A DNA stretch of 64,000 nt, taken from Geodia barretti (Eukaryota). The notes under the pieces are model-generated. The model saw nothing but the letters and a program-made list of their open reading frames with translations, had not been told where the DNA came from and did not search any database. Positions 1 through 46,900 of the stretch are shown one piece after another. The position numbers were made by a program, and so were the translations under genes. The stretch spans positions 18,733 to 82,732 of the forward strand of contig CASHTH010004028.1 of NCBI GenBank assembly GCA_030341885.1, read 5' to 3'. The stretch's first letter is position 1; each line of letters starts with the position of its first letter.

Positions 1-207
1 CGACGTGTACATTATTCAACAGTGGTGCACCTAGAACTGAACGCTTCTCATGAAGGAACGGAGGAGTATTCTATTCAGCAACCCCTGACCCATACACAGA
101 GGAACACGTACCTCCATTGACGCTCTACATCCACCATTAACTACAGCTCCCTACTGTACCAATGGGCTCAATGAGAGACCTCGCCAGTGAATGGGGGTGA
201 ATCTTAC

Positions 208-321
208 CTGTCCGTGTGTATCGAACACCGGTTTCCCGTCCTTGTCCTTCATGGCCGGGTTCTCCACCACGCAGTAGTGCCTCGGGGGAACCACTATCAT
301 CTTCTCTGGTCCAACTATCAC
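208..321 (-). CDS. MVP: MVP exon-2 copy (left arm), intact 38 codons VIVGPEKMIVVPPRHYCVVENPAMKDKDGKPVFDTHGQ; the rest of this copy lies outside the window
   Basis: Matches the vault-repeat N-terminal motif VPPRHYC..V.NP of major vault protein. Flanked by a CAG acceptor and a GTAAGA donor on the minus strand. Confidence 0.7.
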
Positions 322-1191
322 CTGCAGATGGGGAACAACACACACTCAGAAAATTGTATACACCTGCATACTGAATAGCCATCTTAGCTTTGCAAAATTA
401 CAACTTTTCAGTTTTGAATGTGGTCGCGATAGGCAATTATGTGGCACATAAGTGTAAAATAGCAAAAAATCTCCCCATTTCATAAAACTCGTGCGGAATA
501 TGTGAAAGTGATTAGTTTATGGACAAACGGTTTTCAATTTCGTGATAATGCCCTCGCGTGACTTGCCCAGGATTTTCAGCAGGTTACGACAAACTTGAAA
601 AAGCCATAATGCACACAAGCAGAGTATTGCGAACCAGCCTTTAAGTGAGCTAAAATAATGTACGTACATAAGAGCTAAAATAGGCATGTACATAATGGTT
701 ATGCATGCCTCGTTGCATATCTTGGCATGAGCTATATACACACAATGATAGGACTCATAAGTGAGTGACCTTTGCTACTGCCCTTACAGAGCTTCTGAAA
801 TCTCATGGGTAATGCCCAACAAAACCAGATTCATCCTCCAGACGCAACACAGCAGCTCATGTATCAACTTTAACCTCTACAGAGTGGGAGGGTCGTGATG
901 CAGAGGTCTGTGATGCCTATACGAGCTCCACAGTGTATGGCGTGCAATATATGGGTGCAGATGTATAGATTCTGAAAATGTGTTCGTACTGGCATGTGGT
1001 TTAGCATTGACTGCGCGGTCACTAAGGGCAAATGTGTATATTTCCCAACAATATTACAAACAAATGACGGCTCAATGTAACGGAAGGCCTGGGAACATAC
1101 ACGCACTCGCTTTTTCCATCTCTGCTCAGATACCAGCGCAACTAGCTACGCTCGTGATATCGCTTGTGCAGATGTAGCTCGATATTATTAC

Positions 1192-1327
1192 CTTATCGTT
1201 GTCTTGTCGGGAAGGTGTGCCGACCACCACCAACTGTGTCACGTGTGCTGTTCTGGTCCAGGACATGTATGTAGTAGTAGGGAGGATGCGGTAGATGCTC
1301 TTCCCTCGTCTTCTTTGATCTGTCCAT
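1192..1327 (-). pseudogene. MVP: MVP exon-1 copy (left arm), frameshifted relative to the intact right-arm exon 1 at 43921-44061
   Basis: 136 nt versus 141 nt in the right arm. The ORF 1126-1365(-) reads [27 protein letters not shown] then drifts out of the [26 protein letters not shown] frame. Confidence 0.5.
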
Positions 1328-1977
1328 GCTGGCTGAGTTCTCCACTTGCTAGCCCACAGAGTCACAGAAAGAGAGAGAAAGAGAGAAAGAAGAAAGGGGG
1401 AGGAGGTCAGGCATATTTCGGAGGTGTTCTGCCTGGCGTTGCACGGTTGAATGACTCAGAGCATAGCTCATCGTGTGGGGAGGAGATACTATGTGCTCCC
1501 GTCGTGCAGGATTAGGGGGCGAATTTTACGGCATGCGGGAGGTATTCTCGCTAGCCAGACTCTCTCGGGGGAGTCTGGCTAGCGAGACTATGCGTTCGCG
1601 TGCCTGCACAACGCGATTTCCTGATTTCGCGGGTGGTTGTAGCTAGCAACGTGTAGGATGGGAAAAACAGATGTTGCAAGTTCTCACCAACAACAGAAGA
1701 TATTTCTCAAGTCCAGGAGTTGAAACCAAGAGTTCTCCACTGCAGATTACTGCCCGACAGTACAGACGAGTAGGGATGACACAGCAACGTAACGGCGTGT
1801 CGCGCGGTCGGTAAGCAGACTTCGTGTACGCGCTTGCGCATAAACCGCCCCTGACACGCCCTCCTTGTACTTCCGGTGTGGGCGTGGATATCAAGCGACA
1901 AGGGGGCGGGGACAGATTATGGGGCGGGGCCAGGTAAGCTGAAACCCACGTGTCGTCGTATGCACAATGCTGGGTCG
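1328..1977. promoter_or_regulatory. Bidirectional promoter region between the MVP copy (minus) and GTF2H3 (plus); GC boxes, an ETS-like CTTCCGG, and a 17-bp perfect hairpin at 1546-1587
   Basis: Divergent ATGs at 1327 and 1978. GGGGCGGGG and GGGCGGGGC lie at about 1904-1930. The hairpin stem is tctcgctagccagactc paired with gagtctggctagcgaga. Confidence 0.5.
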
Positions 1978-3804
1978 ATGGCAGCAGGCCTGAGACGTCG
2001 TCTGGGGTGCAGAGAGAGGCCAACCTGCTCGTGACCCTTCTCGACCTCTCCGACTCCTTCTCGCGCAGCTCCAGCTGGAGAACCCGCGCAGCAGGTGGAT
2101 AAAAGTGCCCAAATGTCGTCACACACGCAGTGTGTCTGTGCTTTTCGTGTGTGCAGCTGAGCGTGGCCCAGTGTCTGGATAACGTGACCACCTTTCTCAA
2201 CTCCTACCTACTTCTGCAGCAGACAAACAGCGTCGGAGTCTGCCTGTGTCATCAGGGAGGGAGGTGAGACCAAAAGGCTGCCTCATTAGCTGTGTTGTGT
2301 GTGTGTTTGCTGCAGTCGGATGGTGTACCCAGTGGCAGGGAGAGAGGAGGCCGGGCTCCAAGAGACAGAGGAGACCACAAGTGGAAAGTACGAGCCTCTG
2401 GTCCACATGAATCGAGTCCTGACTGAAGAGATTCGCAAGACTGTGACCGAAACTGCTAGTGAGCCTTTGGACTTTGCCATGCATTTTCTTATGTAGTGTG
2501 CCTGACACTTGCTGGGTAGATATATAGTTGCTTTCAGGCAGATCTTGTTTGTCGATTAGTTTATTTTGTCTAAATTTCTTGCAGGTCACCCTGTTCACAG
2601 TACTTCAGCGCTATCGGGAGCACTTAGTAAATGTCTCTGCTGTATCCCCACCACACTCAATGCAGACGTTGATAAAGTTCCATCGTACAGAGAGTTTACT
2701 GTTATAGTTTGACCCCGTCAGGGAGGAAAAATATATATATCTGTTTAGTGATTCAGACTAATAATCTATGGAGGAAAAATATATATATCTGTGCAAGAAA
2801 TAGAACCTAGGTAGTGATTCAGACTTAATTTTTGGCGAAGACATCCAGAGGCGTTGTAGGGAGGCACCACTAGGAACCAAAGTCAACTCACGCATACTAG
2901 TAAGTTTCTTTGAATGTAGCAATTGTCTATCAAATGTGTGGAGCCTTTCTGCAGGTAATAATGTCATCGCAAGACACCGCGTCACAGTATGTACCTGTAA
3001 TGAACTGCATCTTTGCTGCCCAAAAACATGTTGGTCGCCCACCTATACGTATTGGACTGCATCGGTAAATTCTGTGTCTTTTTCGCACACAGAAAATAGT
3101 GATCGACTCGTGCGTCTTATGGCAAGACTCAGGATTTCTACAGCAAGTATATAATTATAGAGAACTCCTCCCCCATTACATAGGTTTTCATTGTCTCTCT
3201 ATTTTTCCAGGCTTCAGATATCACAGGTGGTATTTATATAAAAACTCCAGAGCCTGCAGGCTTACTGCAGTTTCTGATAGTAAGTTTTTCTCCGTAAAGA
3301 GGGGATAATATCCAAAATGGCTACATTAGAGTAGCTATAATATTGAATGCTGTGGCATAGCCTCACCGTAATGTGAGTGAATTTCTGTTGTGATTGTAGT
3401 GGACGTTTCTACCGGATGAGACCAGCAGAGATAAACTCATGCTGCCATCAGCGGTAAAGGTGGACTACCATGCCTCTTGTTTCTGCCACCATCGACTGGT
3501 GGACGTCGGCCATGTCTGCTCTGTCTGTCTCTCTAGTGGGTGTGCCCCTTCAATTTACCTGCCATTTTCTATTCGTGTCACATAATTATACTTACCTGTA
3601 TAATTGAATGTTGATTGCAGTTTTCTGTCAATTCACTCCGATCTGCTCCATGTGCCAGTAAGTATAGAGAAGTAGTGTGGTGCTGATCACTTTACTTTGT
3701 CTTTCTGCAGAGCACACTTCAAGCTGCCCAACTTGCCTCTGGTCAAGGCTGGAAAGTCGAAGAAGAAAAAGAACGCCAAAGTCAGAGACCACGGCCAAGC
3801 ATAG
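1978..3804 (+). CDS. GTF2H3: General transcription factor IIH subunit 3 (TFIIH p34), left-arm copy, 10 exons; exon 1 carries two 1-nt deletions relative to the right-arm copy
   Basis: Exons 1978-2094, 2157-2263, 2316-2458, 2585-2700, 2955-3029, 3093-3146, 3211-3279, 3400-3535, 3621-3657, 3711-3804. Conserved p34 motifs present: ANLLVTLLD, LSVAQCLDNV, KIVIDSCVL..SGFLQQ, ASDITGGIYIKTP, WTFLPD...VDYHASCFCH..VCSVCLS, IFCQFTPICSMCQ, HFKLPNLPLVKAGKSKKKK. GT-AG splice sites throughout. Confidence 0.8.
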
Positions 3805-3991
3805 CAAATTTCCAGTGTTTTATATTGTCCTGTCTTTTTTTTTTTTTATAATGCATGAATCACTACTGTCTTTCGTTTATAATCAGCAGGTTATGTCAAT
3901 TTCTTTTCAATAATGATAATACAAAAGCACGGTTAATGAAAAACAAAAAATTGGGAAATGAACAGTCTTGTGATATTATTATGTATAATGT

Positions 3992-5353
3992 TCAAGCAGC
4001 CATGAACGATTCAAGGTCAAAATAGTCTGGATCAAAGCTTGAATCACTTCCAACGGAGAAGGGAGACAGCATCTTTTCCAGCTCTGAATCTGTCATGTCT
4101 GAGAAGTTGGCTACGAGACAATCATTAACAGGGGCAGAGTCAATAATAACAGGGGAGGTGGCAGTAGACTCTGGTATGAGGGGAAATGGAACGGAATCGG
4201 AAAAACTGTCACTGGATGATGAGAACATGGGCGGGGTCAGTAGGGGGCTGGGGTTCAGAATATGGCTATCGGGTTCCAGTTGGATTGGTGGGTCCCCCAC
4301 CACAATTGGCCCCTGATTGGTCCCCCCTGGTTGGCCCAGGTCATGTGACTGGGAACCAATGTCGACATCAGCGGCCAGTGCTGATCCACCTGATGCGATG
4401 ATGTCATGCCAGGAGTAATCTTGCAGCAGGTGAAACAGAGAATCAAACTATAGACACAAAGAAAAAGTGACTCAAAATGGTAAAGGACGAAGGCTTCTGA
4501 GCTCACTTCACTGTCACCAGGACTCGAGCAAAGAGATCCCCCAGTATCCGCTTCTGCTGCAGAGAAGTGAAAGGTACTGCTGACCCGGATACCGAGGATG
4601 TCCTCTCTGACAACTTGAGTGAGCTGCCGTTACTACTATTGGCTGAGGTGGAGGTGGAGGTGGTGTGGTGTGACTGCTGCTGGACAAGCTGAATCTCCAG
4701 TTCCTGTTTCATAACATCTGTTTTCTGTCTGAGTGCCAGGTTTTCCTGCTGGAGCCTCTCATTCTGTAATGCACCAGTGAAACATCATCTTATCCTCACA
4801 CATCCTAAGTGTACCTTTCGACATGCTTGGCCAAGTACTACATACGTACATACCTTGGCTTCAAGTTCTGCCACTCTTCTTTCCAAGTCCTCAACATAGT
4901 TTTTCCTACGGTCTCTGGCGTTCTGAGCTGCTATCCTGTTCATCAGTTTTCTGTGTCCACAAAAGAAAAGCAAAGTGTGATTTACCGGAGCCGGAGACTA
5001 ATGAAAACACACCTTTTCTCCCTCTTCTGATCATCCGTCAGCTCCTCACTCTCTCCCCTCTTCCTCTTCCTCCCGCTGTAGCGTGGAACCTGTTGATTTT
5101 GTTCGAGCGAGGACGGAGGAGGGCTCCCCGAATGACGCTTCAGCGGTGAACAAGCACTGTCCGGAGAGCCAGCTTGCTGCGGCGGTAGATCGTGAGGTCT
5201 CGGCTGAACCACCGCACACGGTGTTTTCCTCGCAGCGCCGTTCTTGGCCAGGAGCCGTAGACAAAGTAGGAGTAGTTCAGGAGTTAGCTTCGTCAGCGCA
5301 GCCGCAGCGGCGACACCGGCCTTGGATTTGTACATTTCAGCTTGATCCTCCAT
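3992..5353 (-). CDS. XBP1: X-box binding protein 1 (bZIP, unfolded-protein-response), left-arm copy; span runs from the ATG to the stop of the spliced-form C-terminal frame
   Basis: Exon 1 is 5013-5353 (MEDQAEMYKSK...RKRKRGESEELTDDQKREK). Exon 2 is 4854-4950 (RKLMNRIAAQNARDRRKNYVEDLERRVAELEAK, the bZIP basic region). Exon 3 starts at 4763 (NERLQQENLALRQK..). The C-terminal frame ends ...SPFSVGSDSSFDPDYFDLESFMAA, resembling the XBP1s activation-domain terminus. The W-rich alternative frame 4255-4506 resembles the XBP1u tail. Confidence 0.8.
4548..4586 (-). other. XBP1: Candidate IRE1 unconventional splice site pair in XBP1 mRNA: two 7-nt loops CAG|CAGU and CUG|CAGC flanking a 20-nt intron (4560-4579)
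   Basis: Minus-strand sequence is gggtCAG|cagtacctttcacttctctg|CAGCAGaagcgg. The 3' site has a cuucu/agaag stem with loop CUGCAGC, identical to the vertebrate 3' loop. The 5' site has a ggu/acc stem with loop CAGCAGU. The right-arm copy at 40606-40644 has a 19-nt version. Confidence 0.6.
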
Positions 5354-5690
5354 GATTCGACCACAGGGTGAGGTTTTTCACAGAGGGTTTTCATTGTTTT
5401 TTTGTTAGCTACTTTCTTCTATGCTATGCCTCCATTTCAGGACATCTGCCTCCGAGGACGGCTAGGGAGCCACCGATCTTCCAGCCTTTTGTAGTCTTCT
5501 TTGTTTTGCTGCTCGGTCGCGGTCGGTCCGGGGATGACGAAACTTGCATGATGCAAACGTGCTGATTTGTCACAATCTGATTGGTGGAGCGAGTCATGTG
5601 CCTGCTAGAGAATTTGGCGCGAGTTTGGTGCGAAAGCACATGCGCGCGCATCGCAAAAAGCATGCTAGAGTAGAGTAGAGTGGCGGAGAG
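5354..5690. promoter_or_regulatory. Bidirectional promoter between XBP1 (minus) and ZWILCH (plus)
   Basis: Divergent ATGs at 5353 and 5691. CCAAT on the minus strand at 5577-5584 with an ACGTG core nearby. A GC-rich palindrome CATGCGCGCGCATC lies at about 5636-5650. Confidence 0.45.
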
Positions 5691-7573
5691 ATGGATATAA
5701 CCGCTCTTGCTGAGACTTTCACTACCTTTCTTCTCGAGTGCACATCAAAGAGCAGGTCCCAAAAAGGGTCTTTCGACTACGAGCTGAAAATTGGCGAGAG
5801 AAACGTGGCTATTTCTGCCACCCTCCTACCTCCACTTGTTCGTTCCCCATTCTCCGAGATAACTGGTCCCCTCCCCTGCCCCACTGTGGTGCTGGGATCT
5901 CCACACCACCAACAAGATAGGGAGAAGGAAGAAGATGAGTCCCCGGAACTGAGGCCAATTCTTGACCAGTTTTCTAATTCATTTCTCGTTGAGGACTCCC
6001 GTCGCGAAAGGAAAGAGGGAAGAAAAGAGGTTGGACGAAATAAACAGGATCCTGTTCAAGTTTCAGAGAAAAGAGCGATTTTTCTTGGTTCGAAGCTGTT
6101 CCGAAAACGGGTGTACCTAAAACAAGAATCCCGTTCCACCCTAGAAGAGTCACAGTCTGTTGTCAGACAAGCTAATCTCGGTGGACTCGCTCCACTTTCA
6201 CTCGACCTTGCTCCGAGGCTTTGCCTCCTATTACCCTCGTTGGGAGTAGATTGCAGGAAGCGGGGACTTACCACTCGGCCCTTTGGGTACCTTGTACACA
6301 CACCCGAAGGAGCTGTCCAGGAAGATATTGTGGGGCTAGGATGCACACATGAGCCTGAAGGAGGAGGGTTTACTGTGTGCGAGAGAGAGGGGCGGGAGAG
6401 GCTGGAGCAAAGAGGGACCGGGCATGAAAATTACACCGGGCGACTTACAAGGAAATGCGTTTGCCAGGTATGCCATCACGTCTTTTGAGATTTGCTCAAC
6501 TGGTTGCGAGGCAGGGATGATGGTGGAATTTTCTTGGGACAACCCGGAAACCTTTTCTCTCTCCACCACCCGTGTTTGGCACGGAGGGTGTGCTCCATAT
6601 TGCGGTTGGAGCCTGGGAATCTTCAGGCCACTATCTCGACGTTTTCAGAGCTGCAGACTCTTGTCGGGTGTGTGTGAGGCGGTGTGCGATGGGAGGAATG
6701 GTGGGGGCGATTTCCCAGAGGAAGAGGGAGAGGAGGTGCTTACGAAACGAGAGGAACCTTTGCTCATTAACAGAGTGGATGATTTCCTGGAGGCGATTGA
6801 CTCTCCGCTGTCACACACGCTGCAAGTCAACGTTGTCTCGCCATCCCTCGAGAACACCGTTTTCCAGCAGAGGGAAAATCTCGACTTCACAGAGAACCTC
6901 TGGCTTTTTCTAAAAGATGTTCGGAGCCCGGAAGATCTAGAAGCCACCCTGGGAGCAATCTTCAAGGCGTTTTTACTCGGAAGGGTGCGCAATGTGACAT
7001 TTCGCGAGACTAGCAGATCCCCCTTGGCCAAACTCTTGCGCGAGCTCCTAAGCTGCAATTCAGACGCCGAGCGGCAGGTACTTGCTCCGAAGTTCCAACT
7101 CCTTCTCTTACCCAGTAGGTTGCTGCAAACCCTGGCCCAGATTGGGGTTGATAAGTTGAGGCTGGATCTCAGGGTGTTCCTGATTGCAGCCAAGGTGACG
7201 AGCGAGGCTGAGATTGCCAGCTTTCTCGGCGACGGTGAAAATCTTCTGCACCAGTGTCATTCCCTCTGCAACCTTTTCCACGTTGTGGAACTTGTGGGTA
7301 CGGCCATAAACTACCATTGTCTCCCACCACCCTCTCTCATGGCACTCGCAAAATCAGCGATGGATTCTACGTCGGAGACTCCCTTTCGTTGGGTTTGAAG
7401 CCACACCGTTGTTTTCGGTCGCCCTGCCGCAAAGTTCGACTGTCTCAGACCTGTCATTGACATGTGTGTGTCGGGAGTGGGACTCTGGGACTGTGACGTT
7501 ACGTTCAAGCTGCGAGACAGAATGATCATGCTGAGAGCTGGTGTATAGCTGGAGGGAATCAGAAACGTCATGA
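5691..7573 (+). pseudogene. ZWILCH: ZWILCH homolog, left-arm copy, single exon, broken into overlapping frames by many small indels relative to the intact right-arm copy
   Basis: ORFs 5691-6488, 6349-7398 and 6572-6913 are frame-shifted pieces of the 37597-39489(-) protein. For example the left copy reads LDLAPRLCLLLPSLGVD where the right copy reads LDLARAFASYYLVGSRLQESGTLPALWVPC. Confidence 0.5.
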
Positions 7574-7778
7574 TGTGTAATCAAGTCACTTGTAATGAGG
7601 TGTGATTAGTAATCAAACCATTTTATGCGCAGTGCGCGAGCTAATTGGGTTTTATCTTGCGCACACTGCGTTAATGTGAGAATTTTCCTGTATATCGTCG
7701 CGTCTGCCTGTCTGCGCGTAGTGCGTGTTGCTTGCTTGCTCGTGCGTTGAAGAGAGTTTTTAGTTAAGGTGTTAGAAG

Positions 7779-10700
7779 ATGGCCACTGAAGGACTGCCGC
7801 CGGACAGAGTCCCGCCAGAGCTGCGCAGGCAGACGCTCTGCCTCAACTTGTGAGTACACTTTAATTGATGCCCACCCCGTTTGCGAAGTTTCAAATCTGA
7901 GCGCGCGCTTGGCGAAGCATCGTGCTTGGTTATGGAATTTAGGTACCAACTTGTGTTGCCTCTCGACTGGCGGAGATTGTTTTCACTGGCCCCATTAAAC
8001 ACCTGATCCTTTTAGTGACGATAAACTAAACCGAAACGCCAATATTCGCTCGCTCAGATAAGGGAATTGATATAGAGCCTTTCTCTGTATAATGCCTGAA
8101 AAACTGTTTTTGCAGGGGGGACTAGTGTGTCAAATAAGTGTGAGGACAACAACATGGGGCGGGTTCGATCGGGGGTGGTGTTGTACGAGTTTTGTGGCCG
8201 TCGGCGCGCCGCGTGGGTGTGTAGTTACACTCTGCGCATGCGCACAAACAGTGCAAGGGCTTAAAAAGTTCACCGCTAATTGATCGGTCGCGCGATTAGT
8301 CTTTGCACGAGCGAGAGTCTCTGTGCTTGTCTGTCCTCTGCAGGGAGGAGGCGATCCGGAACTACCCCGGTACCCCGGATCCACGCCGGGAGCCTACAGA
8401 ACCCCACGGACGTGGAGATAATCTTCTTCGACCAGTCGAGAAACTCGTAATGGCCGTTCTCTCTCCGGGAGCTAACACTTGAAGCAACATGCAGCAGCTA
8501 GCTAAGACGCGCGCGATTCTGGGTGTATAATAAAAGAGCTAGGTGTGGCGTTGTGAATTCATAGGACTACTAAAACGGCTTATCTTGCACAGCGCTCCTT
8601 GTGCCTTGCTGCAGAAGCGCCTGTCGTGCAATGTAACAGTGAGAATTCTCAGGCTGTGAAGGCGTTTCTGTTCGCCACGTCGTCTGTGAATGTGCGTGTG
8701 TGAGAGTATAACATGCTGGTGTATAATTGGCAAGTAACCGAAATTACTGAGAGAGGAGCTCCATTTTTTTCAGTGACCCTTCATGCATCTGCATATATCA
8801 CAGATCATAGGATAATGCTTGCTATAATTATAGTAACCAGAGAGCAGGTATGTAGGACAGTTTCTTTTGCAATCAGTCTGCAAGATTGACAGTGCAATCA
8901 GTTGCTATCAATATCTGAACATTATTGTTCTGTACTCTGCGACTAGTGTGTGAATGTACTACCGACACACACACACACACCACACGGACACACCAGATGT
9001 ACACAGTACGATGATCAGAGGAGAGGTAGAAGGTAGCTGAATGTCGTAATTATCGGTCATTGCTTCGAGTCAGCTACATCATACAATGCAGTGTTTCTCT
9101 ATTAGTGCTAGCCACCTCATTTATATTCAGCAAACACTTCAGCCTCTCCAGCTATGTATATACTCCTTTGCCGGTGCCACACTAGTTTCTGGCGTATGTA
9201 CTCTTTGGGGCACATATTACGTGCGTATGCGTTGCATATTAGTCCACGTAAGTTGACCTCGTCTTTGGACGCGTTTTTTAAGTAGTGCTTTAGCGTGTAT
9301 ACATTCTGTATAAAGACATTACTCTGAAGGAAGTGGCGCGCCCACTGGTTAACGGCGCGCGTAGTGCAGCAGCAGAGTGCCATGACCTTCATACGTGTCA
9401 CATGACATCACTGTTGTATACAAATTGCCATACACGCATAGGTGCTGCTGTAGCTCTCTCGCTACATAACTACCACATACTATATACTACGTACTATGTT
9501 CACACGGTCTAGGTGTTTGCTTGCCTTGCTGCCTTGCGCCTCAGGATGACTGGCAATACATACACGGCCAGCTGCAGCGAATTCTCTTTATGCTAACAAC
9601 AGAGAAAGAGCCTCAGATTAGATACATTAACCTTAGTTTCTCCCGTCCAAAGTTCCCCAATTTTCTTTGGCCAGCCACAAAGCAGTGTGTTACCTTAATA
9701 TCTCGCACCTCCTGATGTTGTGGGCGCTGTATAGGTTTCCTGGAGCACATAAACCTTAGTTTCCGCTCCAAAGTCCCCCCAATTTTCTTGGGCCAGTCCA
9801 CAGAGTAGTGTTGTGTTGGTAGGCTATTATATCTTCGCACCTCTTGATGGGGGCGGAGTCTGTCTAGGTTGCCTGGAAGGTGCCATGGTGTTCCTGTGAG
9901 ATATCTGCCAGGGTATATGTGTACATGCAACTCAGTGGACATGCTAAAACTTTGTTCTGGCAGATTTTTCACGGAGTGCTGCTTTCTCCACATTTTAGAT
10001 ATTCTTTGTGTCTTCTGCTTTTTTGAAGTGTGATCGTTTTGCACTTCGAAAAGCGGCGTAAAATGCTACTGTTGATGGCAATGTACTGTATGTGTTTCTG
10101 CAGAAGAAAAGTGGAACGAGAGAGAGGAGGTTGTTTTGGCTGAGTGATACCGAAAGTTGATTGCATTTAGTGACCTCCTTAGGACAGTGAAAAGGGTATC
10201 TTTCATGTGGGGGTACACCCTATACCTAACGAGTAAGCCTTAGACCCTGAACTGTGGCAGATGTGTGTATATAGTGCATGCTGTTGGCAGTGCGTAGCTG
10301 GTGATCTGGTGAGGCCCCTGCGGTAGTGGGTTACTATCGTCGGGTCAAAGTTCAGTTGGTTTTTCCAAGTGGTGGTGGTGTGGATGGTTGCATGGGTGGT
10401 TGGGTTTGCTGTCAGACCACATTTTGCGCTGTGCTTCCTTGCCTGCATGGGTGCACCTGCCATTTTCTCCCTCGTCTTTGCCTCTCTCTACTTTGTATTA
10501 TACTTTCTCCCTCGCTCATCCTCTGCTTCTCCTATCCCCTTTCTCCTCTTCCCGTGCCCATTCACTCACTCTCCATCCTCACTCACTATCTTCGTTCCAT
10601 CCTCCTCCTTCTTCTCCACCACCACCACCAACAGACCTAGCAGCTCAGAACCCGCAGCAGCAACACCAGCAGTCAAATCAATCGCTCCCTCAGTCGTCTA

Positions 10701-15402: not shown

Positions 15403-15559
15403 CATTCATTCCCCTCCTTCCCCTTTCTCCTCATTTTCCTTCCCTCCCAACCTCCTTCACTCCTGATGCCTGTGTAATTATATACTCCCATACGCATGAA
15501 CTCTTTTCTCTCTCTCTCCTTTCTTCTCTTCATTTGGCATAATGCATGTTTGCCCCTCT

Positions 15560-15565
15560 AATAAA
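15560..15565 (+). terminator. AATAAA polyadenylation signal about 160 nt downstream of the MED15 stop
   Basis: ctctaataaatttc follows the TGA at 15400-15402. Confidence 0.3.
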
Positions 15566-16029
15566 TTTCAATCTGACTGTCGAACTATAATGTAGAACAA
15601 GTGCTACACGTTGTTTTAGCGAGCCAATGGCAAGTATACATGTAGGTCAGCTGCTCATGAATAATAGTGCATGTGCGTTGTTAAAAAATGTGACAGCAAC
15701 ATTTTAAACCTGCAAGTGTGACAACGGTTTAGGGAAGCACGCCATAGACACAGCTTCTCAGGGACAATAGTGGATGTGCTGTGTTTAAAAAACCCACATG
15801 TGTAACTATATTCTACAGTTTTTGAAACCACTACATAGGTGCACTTATTTGAATTGCAACACTTGTGGAAGTATAATGTTGTACTGCTGACATAGTACTA
15901 CAGATCATGTGCCATGAGAGCAGTATAGGTGGTGTGATGAAAAAGGAAGAGCCTACTGCATTTTGCACAAATCACACAATACACAACTAAAACAATACCT
16001 TGAAAAACAAAAAAAATAAAGGGGGGGGG

Positions 16030-18088: not shown

Positions 18089-18188
18089 TATTTGTTTATG
18101 GTTGACGTAATGCCGAATAATCTTGCGCATGCGCACATGCAAAAGGCAGCTGAGAGAACAGGTCAATCACCGAACACTGACGCAGCAT

Positions 18189-26960: not shown

Positions 26961-27075
26961 TTTTGTTATGCTTAAATGCTGCGTCAGTGTTCGGTGATTG
27001 ACCTGTTCTCTCAGCTGCCTTTTGCATGTGCGCATGCGCAAGGTTATTCGGCATTACGTCACCCATAAACAAATA

Positions 27076-37427: not shown

Positions 37428-37596
37428 CTTCTAACACCTAACATAAACTCTCTTCAACGCACGAGCAAGCAACACGCACTACGCGCAGACAGGAGACGCG
37501 ACGATTACAGGAAATTCTACATTAACGCAGTGTGCGCAAGAAAACCAATTAGCTCGCGCACGCGCATAAAATGGGTTGATTACTAATCACACCTCA

Positions 37597-39489
37597 TTAC
37601 AAGTGACTTGATACACATGACGTTTCTGATTCCCTCCAGCTATACCACCAGCTCTCATCATGATCATTCTGTCTCCAGCCTTGGACGTAACGCTCCACAG
37701 TCCCCAGAGTCCCACTCCCGACACACATGTCAATGACAGGTCTGAGAACAGTCGAACTTTGCGGCAGGGCGACCGAAAACAACGGTGTGGCTTCAAACCC
37801 AACGAAAGGGAGTCTCCGACGATAGAAATCCATCGCTGATTTTGCGAGTGCCATGAGAGAGGGTGGTGGGAGACAATGGTAGTTTATGGCCGTACCCACA
37901 AGTTCCACAACGTGGAAAAGGTTGCAGAGGGAATGACACTGGTGCAGAAGATTTTCACCGTCGCCGAGAAAGCTGGCAATCTCAGCCTCGCTCGTCACCT
38001 TGGCTGCAATCAGGAACACCCTGAGATCCAGCCTCAACTTATCAACCCCAATCTGGGCCAGGGTTTGCAGCAACCTACTGGGTAAGAGAAGGAGTTGGAA
38101 CTTCGGAGCAAGTACCTGCCGCTCGGCGTCTGAATTGCAGCTTAGGAGCTCGCGCAAGAGTTTGGCCAAGGGGGATCTGCTAGTCTCGCGAAATGTCACA
38201 TTGCGCACCCTTCCAAGTAAAAACGCCTTGAAGATTGCTCCCAGGGTGGCTTCTAGATCTTCCGGGCTCCGAACATCTTTTAGAAAAAGCCAGAGGTTTT
38301 CTGTGAAGTCGAGATTTTCCCTCTGCTGGAAAACGGTGTTCTCGAGGGATGGCGAGACAACGTTGACTTGCAGCGTGTGTGACAGCGGAGAGTCAATCGC
38401 CTCCAGGAAATCATCCACTCTGTTAATGAGCAAAGGTTCCTCTCGTTTCGTAAGCACCTCCTCCCCTTCTTCCTCTGGGAAATCGCCCCACCATTCCCTC
38501 CCATCGCACACCGCCTCACACACCCCGACAAGAGTCTGCAGCTCTGAAAACGTCGAGATAGTGGCCTGAAGATTCCCAGGCTCCACCGCAATATGGAGCA
38601 CACCCTCCGTGCCAAACACGGGTGGTGGAGAGAGAAAGGTTTCCGGGTTGTCCCAAGAAAATTCCACCATCATCCCTGCCTCGCAACCAGTTGAGCAAAT
38701 CTCAAAAGACGTGATGGCATACCTGGCAAACGCATTTCCTTGTAAGTCGCCCGGTGTAATTTTCATGCCGTCCCTCTTTGCTCCAGCCTCTCCCGCCCCT
38801 CTCTCTCGCACACAGTAAACCCTCCTCCTTTCAGGCTCATGTGTGCATCCTAGCCCCACAATATCTTCCTGGACAGCTCCTTCGGTGTGTGTACAAGGTA
38901 CCCAAAGGGCCGGTAAGGTCCCCGATTCCTGCAATCTACTCCCAACGAGGTAATAGGAGGCAAAAGCTCGAGCAAGGTCGAGTGAAAGTGGAGCGAGTCC
39001 ACCGAGATTAGCTTGTCTGACAACAGACTGTGACTCTTCTGGGTGGAACGGGATTTCTTGTTTTAGGTACACCCGTTTTCGGAACAGCTTCGAACCAAGA
39101 AAAATCGCTCTTTTCTCTGAAACTTGAACAGGATCCTGTTTATTTCGTCCAACCTCTTTTCTTCCCTCTTTCCTTTCGCGACGGGAGTCCTCAACGAGAA
39201 ATGAATTAGAAAACTGGTCAAGAATTGGCCTCAGTTCCGGGGACTCATCTTCTTCCTTCTCCCTATCTTGTTGGTGGTGTGGAGATCCCAGCACCACAGT
39301 GGGGCAGGGGAGGGGACCAGTTATCTCGAGAATGGGGACGAACAGTGGAGGTAGGAGGGTGGCAGAAATAGCCACGTTTCTCTCGCCAATTTTCAGCTCG
39401 TAGTCGAAAGACCCTTTTTGGGACCTGCTCTTTGATGTGCACTCGAGAAGAAAGGTAGTGAAAGTCTCAGCAAGAGCGGTTATATCCAT
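37597..39489 (-). CDS. ZWILCH: ZWILCH (kinetochore RZZ complex subunit) homolog, right-arm copy, intact intronless ORF of 630 codons from MDITALAETF
   Basis: A single 679-codon open frame, 37597-39636, with the likely start Met at 39489. It carries conserved Zwilch blocks LPALWVPC, NLDFTENLWLFLK..DLEATLGAIFKAFLLG and LLLPSRLLQTLAQIGVDKLRLDLRVFLIAAKV. Confidence 0.75.
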   Translation of the reverse strand: MDITALAETFTTFLLECTSKSRSQKGSFDYELKIGERNVAISATLLPPLFVPILEITGPLPCPTVVLGSPHHQQDREKEEDESPELRPILDQFSNSFLVEDSRRERKEGRKEVGRNKQDPVQVSEKRAIFLGSKLFRKRVYLKQEIPFHPEESQSVVRQANLGGLAPLSLDLARAFASYYLVGSRLQESGTLPALWVPCTHTEGAVQEDIVGLGCTHEPERRRVYCVRERGAGEAGAKRDGMKITPGDLQGNAFARYAITSFEICSTGCEAGMMVEFSWDNPETFLSPPPVFGTEGVLHIAVEPGNLQATISTFSELQTLVGVCEAVCDGREWWGDFPEEEGEEVLTKREEPLLINRVDDFLEAIDSPLSHTLQVNVVSPSLENTVFQQRENLDFTENLWLFLKDVRSPEDLEATLGAIFKAFLLGRVRNVTFRETSRSPLAKLLRELLSCNSDAERQVLAPKFQLLLLPSRLLQTLAQIGVDKLRLDLRVFLIAAKVTSEAEIASFLGDGENLLHQCHSLCNLFHVVELVGTAINYHCLPPPSLMALAKSAMDFYRRRLPFVGFEATPLFSVALPQSSTVLRPVIDMCVGSGTLGTVERYVQGWRQNDHDESWWYSWRESETSCVSSHL

Positions 39490-39825
39490 CTCTCCGCCAC
39501 TCTCTCTAGCTCTAGCATGCTTTTTGCGATGCGCGCGCATGTGCTTTCGCACCAAACTCGCGCCAAATTCTCTAGCAGGCACATGACTCGCTCCACCAAT
39601 CAGATTGTGACAAATCAGCACGTTTGCATCATGCAAGTTTCGTCATCCCCGGACCGACCGCGACCGAGCAGCAAAACAAAGAAGACTACAAAAGGCTGGA
39701 AGATCGGTGGCTCCCTAGCCGTCCTCGGAGGCAGATGTCCTGAAATGGAGGCATAGCATAGAAGAAAGTAGCTAACAAAAAACAATGAAAACCCTCTGTG
39801 AAAAACCTCACCCTGTGGTCGAATC

Positions 39826-41230
39826 ATGGAGGATCAAGCTGAAATGTACAAATCCAAGGCCGGTGTCGCCGCTGCGGCTGCGCTGACGAAGCTAACTCCT
39901 GAACTACTCCTACTTTGTCTACGGCTCCTGGCCAAGAACGGCGCTGCGAGGAAAACACCGTGTGCGGTGGTTCAGCCGAGACCTCACGATCTACCGCCGC
40001 AGCAAGCTGGCTCTCCGGACAGTGCTGTTCAGACCGCTGAGGAGCGGCATCGGGGAGCCCTCCTCTGTCCCTCGCTCGAACAAATCACACAGGTTTCCAC
40101 GCTACAGCGGGAGGAAGAGGAAGAGGGGAGAGAGTGAGGAGCTGACGCATGAGTCAGAGAGAGGGAGAAAAGGTGTGTTGTCATAGTCTCCGGCTCCGGT
40201 AAATCACACTTTGCGTGTTCTCTTTGGTGGACACAGATAAACTGATGAACAGGCATAGCAGCTCAGAACGCCAGAGCACCGTAGGAAAACTATGTTGAGG
40301 CAACTTGGCAGAGAGAGTGCAGAACTTGACGCCAAGTATGTACGTTCTGTAGTACTTGGCAAGCATGTCGAAAGGTACACTTTCGCATGTGTGAGGATAA
40401 TATGATGTTTCACGTGTGCGCATTACAGAATGAGAGCTCCAGCAGGAAATACCTGGCCTCAGACAGAAACAGATGTGATGAAACAGAACTCTGGATGATT
40501 CAGCTGTCCAGCAGCAGTCACACCACACCACCTCCACGCTCCACCTCAGCCAATAGTAGTAACGGCAGCTCACTCAAGTTGTCAGAGAGGACATCCTCGG
40601 ATATCGCGGTCAGCAGGACCTTTCACTCTCTGCAGCAGAAGCGGATACTGGGGATCTCTTTGCTCGAGTCCCATGGTGACAGTGAGTGAGCTCAGAGCCT
40701 TCGTCCTTGTACCATTTTGAGTCACTTTCTTTGTGTCTATAGTTTGATCTCTTTGTCAGTTTCATCACCTGCTGCAAGATTACTCCTGGCATGACATCAT
40801 CGCATCAGGTGGATCAGCACTGGCGCTGATGTCGACTTGGTTCCAGTCACATGACCTGGCCAACCAGGGGGACCAATCAGGGGCCAATTGTGGTGGGGGA
40901 ACCACCCAATCCAACTGGAACCCGATAGCCATATTCTGAACCCCATGCCCCTAGCGCTACTGACCGCCGCCACATGTTCGCTCATCAATCCAGTGACAGG
41001 TTTGTCCCGATTTCGGCCGTTCCATTTCCGCCTCAATACCGAGAGTCTACTGCACCGCTTAGTCCCTGTTAGTATTGACTCTGCTGTTTAATGATTGTCT
41101 GCTGTAGCCAACTTCTCAGAGCATGACAGTTTCAGAGCTGGAAATGATGGCTGTCTCCCTTCTCTCTCCGTTGGCAGTGATTCCAAGCTTGACCTCCAGA
41201 CTATTTGACCTTGTTGAATCGTGTCATGCG
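39826..41230 (+). pseudogene. XBP1: XBP1, right-arm copy; exon 1, the bZIP exon and the C-terminal frame each contain several indels relative to the left copy
   Basis: ORFs 39826-40137 and 39962-40186 are frame-shifted pieces of the MEDQAEMYKSK... exon 1. The bZIP exon at about 40240-40335 reads through stop codons. The stop of the C-terminal frame is at 41228-41230. Confidence 0.45.
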
Positions 41231-41415
41231 GCTGCTTGAGACGCTTATACATAAGTAATATTCACAAGACTGTGTTTCACTTCCAATTTTTTGTGTTTTT
41301 CATTACCGGGCTTTGTATTATCATTATTGAAAAGAAATTGACATAACCTGCTGATTATAACGAAAGACAGTAGTGATCATGCATTTAGACAGGACATATA
41401 AACACTGGAAATTTG

Positions 41416-43232
41416 CTATGCCTTGGCCGTGGTCTCTGACTTGGCGTTCTTTTTCTTCTTCGACTTTCCAGCCTTGACCAGAGGCAAGTTGGGCAGCTTG
41501 AAGTGTGCTCTGCAGAAAGACAAAGTAAAGTGATCAGCACCACACTACTTCTCTATACTTACTGGCACATGGAGCAGATCGGAGTGAATTGACAGAAAAC
41601 TGCAATCAACATTCAATTATACAGGTAAGTATAATTATGTGACACGAATAGAAAATGGCAGGTAAATTGAAGGGCACACCCACTAGAGAGACAGACAGAG
41701 CAGACATGGCCGACGTCCACCAGTCGATGGTGGCAGAAACAAGAGGCATGGTAGTCCACCTTTACCGCTGATGGCAGCATGAGTTTATCTCTGCTGGTCT
41801 CATCCGGTAGAAACGTCCACTACAATCAAACAGAAATTCACTCACATTACGGTGAGGCTATGCCACAGCATTCATATTATAGCTACTCTAATGTAGCCAT
41901 TTTGGATATTATCCCCTCTTACGGAGAAAAACTTACTATCAGAAACTGCAGTAAGCCTGCAGGCTCTGGAGTTTTTATATAAATACACCTGTGATATCTG
42001 AAGCCTGGAAAAATAGAGAGACAATGAAAACCTATGTAATGGGAGGAGTTCTCTATAATTATATACTTGCTGTAGAAATCCTGAGTCTTGCCATAAGACG
42101 CACGAGTCGATCACTATTTCTGTGTGCGAAAAAGACACAGAATTTACCGATGCAGTCCAATACGTATAGGTGGGCGACCAACATGTTTTGGGCAGCAAAG
42201 ATGCAGTTCATTACAGGTACATACTGTGACGCGGTGTCTTGCGATGACATTATTACCTGCAGAAAGGCTCCACACATTTGATAGACAATTGCTACATTCA
42301 AAGTAACTTACTAGTATGCGTGAGTTGACTTTGGTTCCTAGTGGTGCCTCCCTACAACGCCTCTGGATGTCTTCGCCAAAAATTAAGTCTGAATCACTAC
42401 CTAGGTTCTATTTCTTGCACAGATATATATTTTTCCTCATAGATTATTAGTCTGAATCACTAAACAGATATATATATTTTTCCTCCCTGACGGGGTCAAA
42501 CTATAACAGTAAACTCTCTGTACGATGGAACTTTATCAACGTCTGCATTGAGTGTGGTGGGGATACAGCAGAGACATTTACTAAGTGCTCCCGATAGCGC
42601 TGAAGTACTGTGAACAGGGTGACCTGCAAGAAATTTAGACAAAATAAACTAATCGACAAACAAGATCTGCCTGAAAGCAACTATATATCTACCCAGCAAG
42701 TGTCAGGCACACTACATAAGAAAATGCATGGCAAAGTCCAAAGGCTCACTAGCAGTTTCGGTCACAGTCTTGCGAATCTCTTCAGTCAGGACTCGATTCA
42801 TGTGGACCAGAGGCTCGTACTTTCCACTTGTGGTCTCCTCTGTCTCTTGGAGCCCGGCCTCCTCTCTCCCTGCCACTGGGTACACCATCCGACTGCAGCA
42901 AACACACACACAACACAGCTAATGAGGCAGCCTTTTGGTCTCACCTCCCTCCCTGATGACACAGGCAGACTCCGACGCTGTTTGTCTGCTGCAGAAGTAG
43001 GTAGGAGTTGAGAAAGGTGGTCACGTTATCCAGACACTGGGCCACGCTCAGCTGCACACACGAAAAGCACAGACACACTGCGTGTGTGACGACATTTGGG
43101 CACTTTATCCACCTGCTGCGCGGGGTTCTCCAGCTGGAGGCTGCGCGAGAAGGAGTCGGAGAGGTCGAGAAGGGTCACGAGCAGGTTGGCCTCTCTCTGC
43201 ACCCCAGACGACGTCTCAGGGCCTGCTGCCAT
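41416..43232 (-). CDS. GTF2H3: GTF2H3 (TFIIH p34), right-arm copy; exon 1 intact (MAAGPETSSGVQREANLLVTLLDLSDSFSRSLQLENPAQQ)
   Basis: Mirror of 1978-3804. The stop is a TAG complement at 41416-41418. ORFs 42610-43011(+) and 42059-42301(-) are antisense or read-through frames across these exons. Confidence 0.75.
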
Positions 43233-43920
43233 CGACCCAGCATTGTGCATACGACGACACGTGGGTTTCAGCTTACCTGGCCCCGCCCCATAATCTGTCC
43301 CCGCCCCCTTGTCGCTTGTATCCACGCCCACCGGAAGTACAAGGAGGGCGTATCAGGGGCGGTTTATGCGCAAGCGCGTACACGAAGTCTGCTACCGACC
43401 GCGCGACCGACCGACCGACCGACCGACCGCCCGACCGCCCGCCGTTACGTTGCTGTGTCATCCCTACTCGTCTGTACTGTCGGGCAGTAATCTGCAGTGG
43501 AGAACTCTTGGTTTCAACTCCTGGACTTGAGAAATATCTTCTGTTGTTGGTGAGAACTTGCAACATCTGTTTTTCCCATCCTACACGTTGCTAGCTACAA
43601 CCACCCGCGAAATCAGGAAATCGCGTTGTGCAGGCACGCGAACGCATAGTCTCGCTAGCCAGACTCCCCCGAGAGAGTCTGGCTAGCGAGAATACCTCCC
43701 GCATGCCGTAAAATTCGCCCCCTAATCCTGCACGACGGGAGCACATAGTATCTCCTCCCCACACGATGAGCTATGCTCTGAGTCATTCAACCGTGCAACG
43801 CCAGGCAGAACACCTCCGAAATATGCCTGACCTCCTCCCCTTTCTTCTTTCTCTCTTTCTTCCTCTCTCTCTCTCTCTTTCTGTGACTCTGTGGGCTAGC
43901 AAGTGGAGAACTCAGCCAGC
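43233..43920. promoter_or_regulatory. Bidirectional promoter between GTF2H3 (minus) and MVP (plus), right arm; carries a (CGAC)n expansion at 43386-43432 that is absent from the left arm, and a copy of the 17-bp-stem hairpin at about 43661-43705
   Basis: Divergent ATGs at 43232 and 43921. GC boxes present. Mirror of 1328-1977. Confidence 0.5.
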
Positions 43921-46900
43921 ATGGACAGATCAAAGAAAGACGAGGGGAAGAGCATCTACCGCATCCCTCCCTACTACTACATACATGTCCTGGACCAGAA
44001 CAGCAACGTGACCAAGTTGGTGGTGGGACCACACACCTTCATCAGACAAGACAACGAGAAGGTATAATATAGCTACATCTGAACAAGCGAGATCGAGATA
44101 GTTGAACATGTAGCTGAGAGAGAGGGAAAGAGAGTGCAGGTGTATGTTCCCAGGCCTTCCGTTACATTGAGCGTCATTTGTTTGTAATATTGTGGGTAAA
44201 TATATACACGTTCCCTTTAGTGACTGCGAGTAATGCTAAACCACATTCCCCAGTACAGAACCACACATTTTCAGGATTATACTGCATCCCATATGCACGC
44301 CATACACTGTGGAGCAGTAATAGCATTCACAGACCTCTGCACACGAGCCCTCCCACTCTGTAGAGGGTAAAGTTGATACATGAGCTGCTGTGTTGCGTCT
44401 GGAGGATGAATCTGGTTTTGTTGGGCATTACCCATGACGAGGGTTCGGATAGCTCTGTAAGGGCAGTTAGCAAAGGTCATCACTCACTGATGAGTTCCTA
44501 TCATTGTGTGTGTATATTGCTCATGCCAAGATATGCAACGAGGCATGCCATAACCATATGTACATGCCTACTAGCTCTGATCTGTACGTACATTATTTTG
44601 CTCACTTAAAGCGCTGGTTCGCAATACTCTGCTGTGCTGTCGCATTTTATGGCTTTTCAAGTTGTCGTACCTGCTGAAAATCCTGGCAAGTCACGCCGAG
44701 CGCATTATCACGAAATTGAAAACCTGTTTGTCATAAACTAATCACTTTCACATAACTTCCGCGGAGTTTTATGAAATGGGGACGGTGCCTATTGTTACAT
44801 CTATGCTGCCACATAATGCTATCGCGACCACATTCAAAACTGAAAACACTCTGTAATTTTGCCAAACTAAGATGGACTATTCAGGTATGCAGTGTAGTAT
44901 ACATTTTCTGAGTGTGTGTTGTTCCCCATCTCGCAGGTGATAGTTGCGACCAGAGAAGATGATATGTGGTTCCCCGAGGCAACGACTGCGTGGTGGAGGA
45001 ACCGGCCATGAAGACAAGGACGGCGAACGCGATTGTTCGATACACACGGACAGGTAAGATTCACCCCCATTCACTGGCGACGAGGTCTGCTCATTGAGCC
45101 ATTGTACAGTAGGACCTGAGCTGTAGGTTAATGGTGGATGTAGAGCGTCACATGGAGGTACGTGTTCCTGCTGTGTATGGGTCAGGGCTGTCTGAATAGG
45201 CTAATAGCCCTCCGTTCCGTCATGCATGAAGAAGCGTTCAGTTCTAGGTGCACCACGGTGTGAATAATGTACACGCTGGTCCATATGTGAAAAGATTTTA
45301 AAAACGGAGATAATGTGTGAAAACGATAACTTGAGCGTATGTGAAAGATTTCGATTGGCAGACGGGAATCGCTCCATCTCTGAACATTAACACAGCGAGT
45401 TTGTGTATACATTCTCAACCTCAAGCGCCTCCCTGTACATTGGCGATCACATGGATCTATTGTACATCTATATGATAATAGATACACTTCTCCCTCTCCA
45501 GATAAAGCTGCGCCACGCAGATCAGGAGATACGGGTGGCACAGGACCGTTTCCTCTCTTCCCGGGAGAGGTCCTGAAGCAGATAGTCACCCAGCTGAAGG
45601 TGGTCCCGGCCAACACTGCACTGCGCCTGCGAGCCGTCCTCGACTTTGTGGAGGAAGGAGGGTCCAAGAGGACAGCTGGGGACGAGTGGCTGTTTGAGGG
45701 CCCAGGTTAGCTCTCACCCACTCTCTGGTGGAGGACTATTATGTTGCCGGAGCCTGTGACCTGACACAGTGTGATGTAGCATGAATTAGAGGGTATCGGG
45801 CAATGCAAGTGTGTGTGAAATCAACAAGCTGGGAGTTCTATAGTTGTGACAGGCTAGCTTCACAAGCTGGGAGCTCTATAGTTGTGACAAGCTAGCTCAC
45901 TGTGGCTTTACTTCCTGCGTTTACAGACCACATCATTTTCATGCATTTTGGTGTGGGTATAATTAAAATACCAGCTTCCCTTCAGCCGCTGCTGTGTCAT
46001 TGTTAGAAGACTTCCCCAAATTTTACCATGCCAACTCATGCTGCTGTGACTATTTTTAGAATGCCCCGTTCTTACATCACTGTATCTACTATTTACATAT
46101 AATGTTTCTGCATATCCTCTGTACAATAATTATGTGTAGTGTGAAACCAATATAGAAAGTGTGCTGGTTTGTGAAGTGTCCTTATTTCGGGGTGTGTTTA
46201 TTAGCAGGGTTTCCCCACTCTGTAGGGACCTACATTCCATACAAGGAGGTGGTTGTCGAGGAGACGATCAGGGCCACAGTCATCAAACCAAACCAGGCCA
46301 TTAAACTGAGGGCCCGCAAGGAGACTCTGGTACACTTCACGAACAGCTATATACCTCTTTCCTCTCTCTTCCAGTATTTCCCTTCTCAAATATTCCCTGC
46401 CGGTTAATGATGAATTTTTCAACTCTCCTCGTTTTCCGTTTTCAACTGCCTTATAACCCTTTCTGTCCTTATTCCACTTGCTATCTCTGCCCCTCTCTCT
46501 CCTCCTCCTCCTGTTCCACTTCTCCTTGTCAGGATCGAGACGGGAACCCCAGAGTGACGGGAGAAGAGTGGCTGGTCAAGAAGATTGGGGCCTACCTTCC
46601 TGGAGCCTATGAGGAGGTGGTGGAGCTGGTGGATGCCTATGTCCTCACTGAGAAGGTCAGTCAGTCACTTAGTAAGTGATCCACTGTGTTTGATACGTAT
46701 ATAAGTCAGGCCAGCTATGCTAAAGTTCTGAAGTTTAGTTGGAGACATTGAACTGGGCAGAGTTCCCTCAGTGTTTCTTTACTGCAACAGTTGGAGTGTG
46801 GTGCAAATTGCTCATACTGCTCAACAAAATCTTAGCAGAGCGAGTTGTTTTTTTTCGTGATGTGGTGCTGAATGTATATATAGGCATGATGGTATGTGGT

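Follow-up and report, generated by a model that had tools for sequence, protein, structure and literature searches.

The 64,000-nt stretch of the Geodia barretti genome examined in this study (assembly GCA_030341885.1, contig CASHTH010004028.1, positions 18,733 to 82,732 of the forward strand; hereafter, the window) contains a large inverted repeat, in which two arms carry the same genes in the same order (a peptidase gene, a membrane-protein gene, MED15, ZWILCH, XBP1, GTF2H3, and the 5' end of MVP) on either side of a short spacer. Taken at face value, it would represent second copies of five essential, normally single-copy genes, as well as an unusual giant palindrome of the autosomal type. 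We found that a small palindrome containing a head-to-head pair of peptidase genes is the real, biological core of this structure. We consider it probable that the whole is best read as this conserved small palindrome plus an outward extension that arose as an assembly artifact. The housekeeping part of the arms is most likely one region that was written twice by a noisy long-read assembly, and the structure resembles a fold-back extension that started from a small but genuine inverted repeat more than it resembles a join of two haplotigs.

Self-BLAST and repeat finding agree that the two arms are reverse complements of each other (coordinates of all features are listed in Table 1). Three collinear high-scoring segment pairs on the minus strand cover them, i.e., 4-14855 versus 45275-30401 (94.9% identity, 434 gap openings), 14817-18479 versus 30343-26685 (97.9%), and 18495-21772 versus 26586-23323 (96.4%), with E = 0 over 21.7 kb, which is well past chance expectation. 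The raw arm identity of 95-98% mostly reflects indel noise of one nucleotide rather than divergence, and once this noise is discounted the outer arms are essentially identical, so that the window does contain a unique spacer flanked by inverted arms that match each other very closely. A search for an internal inverted repeat in the spacer found none. Thus, several claims of the original prediction, which had been made from the sequence of the window, were borne out: inverted arms with the same gene order (by self-BLAST, Pfam matches, and open reading frames (ORFs)), an asymmetric center of 1.55 kb that is not self-complementary, and a left arm cut by the edge of the window. The outer boundary that it placed near 45.28 kb is not a boundary of the structure; position 1 of the window pairs with position 45278, which is only the reflected window edge.

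The center of the palindrome is genic. The spacer holds two diverged first exons (named alpha and beta) of a glutamate-carboxypeptidase-II (GCPII)-like gene, which are arranged head to head and are approximately 38% identical to each other. Each of them codes for a short tail followed by a hydrophobic helix, and has a conserved end with a GT donor behind it; on both sides, the identity of the arms starts 23 nt upstream of the exon-2 acceptor. Direct splicing of the alpha exon 1 to exon 2, with the later exons following, is seen in a transcript contig of a sister lineage (L005; proteins P0027 and P0033). The encoded peptidase shows homology to human GCPII structures (E = 8e-54), and the best named matches to the peptidase query are animal GCPII homologs (32-37%). 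Based on this homology, the features of a type II membrane topology, and the matches to Peptidase_M28 and TFR_dimer, the core gene is predicted to be a member of the glutamate carboxypeptidase II/NAALADase/transferrin-receptor-like M28 family.

When both first exons plus exon 2 were used to query a collection of 5.8 billion proteins, no transcript or protein match was obtained for the beta exon 1; the search returned only alpha-type transcript-derived proteins and one cluster of a relative. Expression of the beta 5' end may be weak, or this end may be undergoing decay. Among the changes private to the right arm in the peptidase exons, the ratio of synonymous to non-synonymous changes is 6:20, which is compatible with either relaxed constraint or residual consensus error. 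In a high-coverage contig of a relative (L028, 5117-5499), the reading frame of the beta exon 1 is interrupted between MDAKRNRKEEMVPL... and the membrane helix.

Related organisms were compared by using contigs that all come from metagenome assemblies. Two of these relatives have a contig that spans the locus: ctg245527 (974 kb, 77x coverage; merged locus L007/L008, hereafter M) and ctg471207 (2.45 Mb, 43x; L028). Both contain the same head-to-head peptidase pair, with arms of only approximately 2.9-4 kb that include the peptidase gene only. The gene order in ctg245527 is MED15, membrane protein, peptidase copy, a 5.5-kb spacer, peptidase copy, and unrelated sequence; its inverted repeat (7640-8821/20010-18784 at 89% and 9023-10537/17523-16004 at 96%) lies inside the peptidase gene. 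On its far side (M 20010-26492), which is gene-poor and of low complexity, neither a membrane-protein copy nor a MED15 copy was found. In ctg471207, there is a single 2,873-nt repeat with 96.6% identity whose inner edge is again at exon 2, and it is flanked by the membrane protein, MED15, and Zwilch on one side and by an unrelated Arg/Glu/Ser-rich ORF (L028 511-1308) on the other. A third relative has Zwilch at one place only on a 222-kb contig. Therefore, of the comparison with related assemblies that the original prediction had called for, the small core was recovered in two relatives; the arm extent of 21.7 kb was not, and the housekeeping block stands on one side only there. In the spacer of ctg245527, a 770-aa reverse-transcriptase (RVT_1) ORF is inserted (L007 5373-7685; M ~11286-14469), and this spacer is thereby enlarged to 5.5 kb, whereas spacers elsewhere measure 1.2-1.55 kb.

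The gene bodies within one genome are 89-97.6% identical (96.4% in the window, 89-96% in ctg245527, and 96.6% in ctg471207), versus 72-85% in the exons of orthologs between lineages. In the score matrix of the first exons, within-type scores range from 150 to 240 and cross-type scores from 112 to 159, and the alpha and beta types are each common to several lineages. Because the bodies are alike within genomes and the exon-1 types are shared across lineages, the duplication is old and the peptidase gene bodies are under concerted evolution through arm-to-arm exchange. One spanning relative has the alpha exon-1 type on the housekeeping side, whereas the other has it on the opposite side; that is, the orientation of the spacer relative to the MED15/ZWILCH flank is opposite in L028 (4517-5708) and M (10539-16003). 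Hence, an inversion of the spacer has taken place between lineages, and the arms undergo crossing-over in addition to conversion. With each spacer inversion, the first exons and promoters are swapped between the two peptidase bodies. In the window, the left junction resembles one spacer isomer and the right junction the other. We also considered exon-1 type in combination with synteny as a guide to the "true" arm; this was dropped because the second relative has the opposite spacer orientation.

The differences between the arms of the window are of two kinds, depending on the distance from the center. In the inner zone, where the consensus is clean in both arms over approximately 7.6 kb per arm, they consist of clean substitutions, multi-nucleotide intron indels, and a (GT)n length change, and the membrane-protein ORF shows in-frame indels of 12 nt and 3 nt between the arms. 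Private variants of the right arm include a 12-nt GT insertion at 28712, a missing CAA at 28639, and a 66-nt insertion near 26684. When the changes of the inner zone were polarized with a closer relative, 25 were derived in the left arm and 19 in the right arm, which is balanced. The event density is ~2.4% at 18.2-21.8 kb, 1.7% at 16-18.2 kb, and 0.9% at 14.1-16 kb. Arm differences that look biological are confined to 14.1-21.8 kb, and the end of the real repeat in this lineage is placed between ~18.2 kb (as in the relatives) and ~14.1 kb. The exact center of the structure is occupied by a conserved repeat whose arms differ by 1-2.4%, as expected if the extension was seeded at a genuine repeat beyond the resolution of the reads. 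One contig of a closer relative (ctg10662 of ERZ28669063) ends at the equivalent of ~13.95 kb, near the position where the biological-looking arm differences stop (~14.16 kb).

For the outer zone, contigs that had been assembled independently from short reads of the same species (L001, L030, and L031) served as referees. Over the outer 9-11 kb, almost every difference between the arms occurs in one of them only, and most of these differences are either insertions or deletions of a single nucleotide or short spurious insertions (e.g., TAGTGCAG and TGGCAATACA); error patches in one arm reach up to ~10%. Compared with an intact Illumina-derived ORF of 634 aa, the Zwilch coding sequence contains 15 indel events in the left arm (14 of them frame-breaking) and three in the right arm (all frame-breaking). 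The overall noise is about equal in both arms against the longer referee L030, but the noisy patches alternate. An earlier assumption that the left arm is the weak arm held against L001 and was rejected since L030 showed equal overall noise. When errors were counted per 500-nt bin, those private to the left arm were anti-correlated with those private to the right arm (Spearman -0.58, p = 0.010). With bins of 200 columns, 34% were noisy in either arm taken by itself, and 2% were noisy in both arms at once, compared with 11.6% expected. MVP exons to the right of position 45278 also carry frame breaks, including a frameshift within a conserved MVP exon at 45480-45700 on the plus strand (...IRVAQD / PFPLFPGEV...). 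The persistence of noise beyond the mirrored window edge fits a duplicated zone that runs past the left end of the window.

We further analyzed 4,209 clean-context columns in the outer 9.3 kb. Here 15 alleles (11 of them transitions) distinguish the arms from the Illumina strain, and every one of these is present in both arms; there are 11 arm-to-arm differences, eight of which are left-private, error-like, and located in left-noisy patches (seven of these eight are transversions). At most two to three sites in the ~4.2 kb of clean columns are plausible real variants between the outer arms. Two clean transitions, at 38299 and 38215 (mirror positions 6894 and 6978), are private to the right-arm Zwilch, and the left arm agrees with two Illumina contigs there; these could be real variants of low frequency or errors of the consensus, and represent the only plausible real differences in the outer arms. 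Given a population diversity of 0.13-0.5%, the outer arms have essentially zero real divergence over at least 9 kb. The shared alleles and the error-type nature of the private differences indicate that the outer arms are one haplotype written twice, and in the outer 9.3 kb the pattern is that of a false duplication, i.e., the same haplotype with only consensus or read-error differences.

An assembly artifact of this kind could have been produced as follows. Past the real repeat, the sequence on the far side should lead into another flank, as in both spanning relatives, and the assembly would instead have run back along the reverse complement of the housekeeping flank that it had already traversed (from the membrane protein to MVP). 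Noisy long reads of low depth would not be able to separate copies that differ by 1-2.4%, and a wrong exit from the repeat would give the arrangement X - copy - spacer - copy - rc(X), where X is the flank and rc its reverse complement. The same product might be obtained if fold-back priming took place at the natural inverted repeat while the library was prepared, or if two spacer-orientation isomers were merged through their shared spacer. The read pool of the single real flank would then be split between two written copies, and one read pool shared by two copies would leave outer arms of one haplotype, with raw-read-type errors only and with noise that alternates between them.

We also considered whether the large palindrome is real, i.e., a very recent outward expansion of the arms from the conserved small palindrome in this lineage, either by stepwise boundary expansion or by crossover in the inverted arms between sister chromatids or homologs (an isochromosome-like X-X product). 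If so, arms of at least 21.7 kb would carry a second MED15, ZWILCH, XBP1, and GTF2H3 and at least the MVP 5' end, and the palindrome would have been caught while growing over essential single-copy genes. The geometry matches exactly the product of an inter-chromatid crossover in inverted arms, and crossing-over between arms does occur in this group, as the spacer inversion between relatives shows. Moreover, the outward fall in divergence from 2.4% through 1.7% and 0.9% to approximately zero is what stepwise expansion predicts, each arm has its own error pattern and so was assembled from different reads, and the closer relative has the block on two contigs. Nevertheless, we regard such an expansion as rather unlikely. 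The artifact is favored because both spanning relatives lack the extension, because the outer arms show almost no real divergence over at least 9 kb despite the diversity of the population, and because errors in the outer zone are zero-sum between the arms, whereas the inner zone, in which two real sequences exist, is clean in both. In addition, a product of the isochromosome type would come with the duplication and deletion of entire chromosome segments, and a sample is unlikely to consist mainly of such a form. The claim of a biological palindrome that truly duplicates housekeeping genes is therefore not supported, since relatives carry the block on one side and the outer arms are one haplotype with complementary error.

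An inverted join of haplotigs, in which the arms would be the two alleles of a single diploid locus that were connected head to head, has a precedent in the draft palindromes of Adineta vaga, which came from joined phased haplotypes (PMC8494291). Such a join would agree with the inner 14.1-21.8 kb, where two real and equally diverged sequences are present (25 versus 19 derived changes, with in-frame indels), and with the ~1.5% divergence between the two contigs of the closer relative. It is very improbable for the window as a whole, as a difference at the level of heterozygosity was found at 14.1-21.8 kb only rather than along the whole arms: the outer arms belong to the same haplotype, sharing every clean allele that separates them from the Illumina strain, and the junction is not arbitrary but coincides with an inverted repeat that occurs naturally, is conserved, and has two distinct first exons. 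Thus, the original prediction rightly flagged the risk of an assembly error, and its suggestion of two haplotigs does not quite fit. A single fold-back sequencing read, due to a missed hairpin adapter or to read-through from template into complement, is the least credible explanation and can nearly be dismissed. An arm length of at least ~22 kb is within the range of long reads, and error close to that of raw reads does occur in one arm at a time; but these errors alternate between the arms instead of being limited to one, and the center is asymmetric, with a genic spacer of 1,550 nt whose structure is conserved in relatives. Neither a symmetric center with an adapter nor the absence of a spacer was observed, and no sequence similar to SMRTbell or Oxford Nanopore Technologies adapters was found within five edits.

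Several observations weigh against an artifactual extension and should be considered. In ERZ28669063, which is the closest relative with long contigs (~89% DNA identity), the housekeeping block is present on two contigs, ctg24291 (L003) and ctg10662 (L004), whose MVP-to-MED15 blocks are 98.5% identical, with some segments at 87-95%. Both contigs break at or near the repeat, toward the center of the palindrome, and the center appears to be unassembled in this data set. The two breaks fit an assembly-graph tangle at the locus. The contig pair could also represent both arms of a palindrome that is truly extended, instead of two haplotypes. With exon identities of 72-85%, the spanning relatives are fairly distant, which leaves room for an expansion specific to this lineage. 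The biological-looking differences reach ~14.1 kb, which is past the end of the repeat in the relatives (~18.2 kb); this would mean that the real repeat extends further in this lineage, or that two haplotypes went into the assembly at 14.1-18.2 kb. Complementary noise could also arise if a true palindrome with identical arms was polished by best hit. Furthermore, searches with exon 1/exon 2, with the peptidase C-terminus plus the membrane protein, and with the membrane protein gave no same-species contig with an alternative flank. The Zwilch cluster includes contigs of relatives, and its same-species matches are short Illumina contigs only (3-11 kb); none reaches the center, and no spanning assembly of the same species was present in the collections searched. 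A scan of Joint Genome Institute metagenomes with the peptidase C-terminus and the membrane protein returned distant relatives only (30-65% aa identity), and the membrane-protein search returned no same-lineage match, giving the relative L028 and an unrelated locus (L029).

The gene names given in the original prediction were confirmed by Pfam matches, which were obtained on window ORFs for Zwilch, Med15_M, TFR_dimer, and Peptidase_M28. Matches to Tfb4, bZIP, and Vault/MVP were found on collinear orthologous loci, and the corresponding ORFs are visible in the window; for example, the Tfb4 ORF of L003 (7121-7729) maps onto window positions 2765-3238. The membrane protein is present in one copy only in the relatives.

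Table 1. Features of the inverted repeat and of the genes it contains (window coordinates).
Feature	Position	Strand	Remarks
Left arm	1..21772	.	Truncated at the window edge
Right arm	23323..45278	.	End at 45278 is the mirror of window position 1 only
Spacer	21773..23322		1,550 nt, not self-complementary; two diverged first exons, their first introns, and the intergenic region
Outer zone	1..13000		Mirror 32300-45278; most likely one haplotype written twice
Inner zone	14100..21772		Mirror 23323-31150; clean consensus in both arms, ~7.6 kb per arm
Alpha-type exon 1	22118..22460	-	Ends ENIKENLR, then GT donor; one frameshift in the window copy compared with transcripts
Intergenic region between first exons	22461-22679		Shared, probably bidirectional promoter
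Beta-type exon 1	22680..23023	+	Ends AGNIRENLR, then GT donor; intact ORF
Left-arm peptidase body	18204..21749	-	Exon 2 to last exon; 13 exon blocks mapped from transcript L005
Right-arm peptidase body	23346..26957	+	Exon 2 begins 23 nt inside the arm edge; TFR_dimer and Peptidase_M28
Membrane protein (single-pass), last exon, left copy	16030..16554	-	174 aa
Membrane protein (single-pass), last exon, right copy	28609-29142	+	177 aa
MED15 exon with Med15_M domain, right copy	30759..31163	-	
MED15 whole span, right copy	~29.8-35.3 kb	-	Mirror ~10-15.5 kb (+)
ZWILCH, left copy	~5691-7444	+	15 indel events, 14 frame-breaking
ZWILCH, right copy	37597..39492	-	Single-exon ORF; 3 frame-breaking indels compared with the Illumina-derived protein
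XBP1-like bZIP gene exons, left copy	4788..5377	-	Basic region AAQNARDRRKNYVEDLERRVAELEAK; bZIP_1 Pfam matches on orthologous ORFs
XBP1-like gene, mirror copy	~39.9-40.5 kb	+	
GTF2H3/Tfb4, left copy	2290..3900	+	Extent approximate; mirror ~41.4-43.0 kb (-)
MVP 5' exon, left copy	154..345	-	Contains VVPPRHYCVVENP; gene cut by the window edge
MVP, right copy	~44.9 kb to at least 49.8 kb	+	Vault Pfam matches on L003/L004/L030

Repetitive sequences were also observed in the window. The MED15 region contains GA/CT-rich low-complexity tandem repeats (14816/30302-30435 and 11401-11574/33683-33768), one of which shows a 92-nt difference between the arms. A 27-nt tandem repeat in the MVP region (47112-47233; 4.5 copies, 96% matches) has a unit that is a multiple of three and is probably intronic. 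The non-palindromic right part of the window includes three minisatellite arrays, 57260-58314 (61-nt unit, 17 copies), 59517-60004 (64-nt unit, 7.7 copies), and 61466-61890 (64-nt unit, 6.8 copies). No Pfam or Rfam match was found near these arrays, and the Rfam scan of the window gave no match at all.

The structure can be compared with several known systems. In plastid genomes, recombination between inverted repeats inverts the single-copy segment and generates flip-flop isomers, whose flanks cannot be phased unless reads span repeat, spacer, and repeat. The present case differs in that a nuclear gene pair is involved, the inversion is seen between lineages only, and the flip swaps first exons and promoters. 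Human isodicentric Y chromosomes, idic(Y), are formed by crossover between palindrome arms, which mirrors a whole chromosome segment and usually gives an unstable product. This mechanism predicts exactly the order X - arm - spacer - arm - rc(X) that is found in the assembled sequence of the window.

The palindromes of primate sex chromosomes (P1-P8 of the Y chromosome, and those of the X chromosome) have the same inverted arms, a unique spacer, and a sharp boundary between arm and spacer (PMC3723533, PMC8327919, PMC8600007). Their arms are likewise homogenized within a genome while orthologs diverge, and their structure is conserved across species (here, this applies to the core only); occasional inversion of the spacer by arm crossover has been described for them as well (PMC3723533, PMC8327919). 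Unlike these palindromes, the validated core is small (arms of ~2.9-4 kb in the relatives; not more than ~7.6 kb in the window), each arm carries one ordinary peptidase gene instead of a testis gene family, and the arm identity within a genome is 89-97.6% rather than >99.9%. The first exons are located in the spacer, and therefore the two genes share their bodies and not their 5' ends.

With regard to assembly artifacts, the palindromes in the 2013 draft genome of A. vaga were shown to be artifacts by a chromosome-level assembly, which attributed them to erroneous scaffolding of phased haplotypes (PMC8494291). The likeness lies in palindromic ordinary genes that appear in the draft assembly of a small, invertebrate-like genome and are taken as biology; those of A. 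vaga are missing from better assemblies. In contrast to A. vaga, the outer arms here belong to the same haplotype, and the artifact would have been seeded by a genuine inverted repeat. False duplications catalogued so far are mostly tandem duplications or haplotype duplications on separate contigs, and they share with the window an apparent gain of essential single-copy genes whose copies differ mainly by consensus error (PMC9516828). Unlike most of them, the duplication in the window is inverted and hairpin-like, and is built around a real repeat.

The gain of housekeeping genes in this contig is most likely false, in which case gene family counts, inferences on dosage or copy number, and synteny maps derived from it would be wrong. 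The window may serve to illustrate how, in an assembly of error-prone long reads, a long hairpin duplication can grow from an inverted repeat that is short but genuine. Its telltale signs can be read from sequence data: copies of the same haplotype, anti-correlated indel errors, and a clean inner zone where two real copies exist. What remains as a small genuine finding is a head-to-head pair of GCPII-like genes that is conserved in relatives. Its gene bodies undergo concerted evolution, its first exons, located in the spacer, diverge, and the spacer itself has been flipped between lineages.

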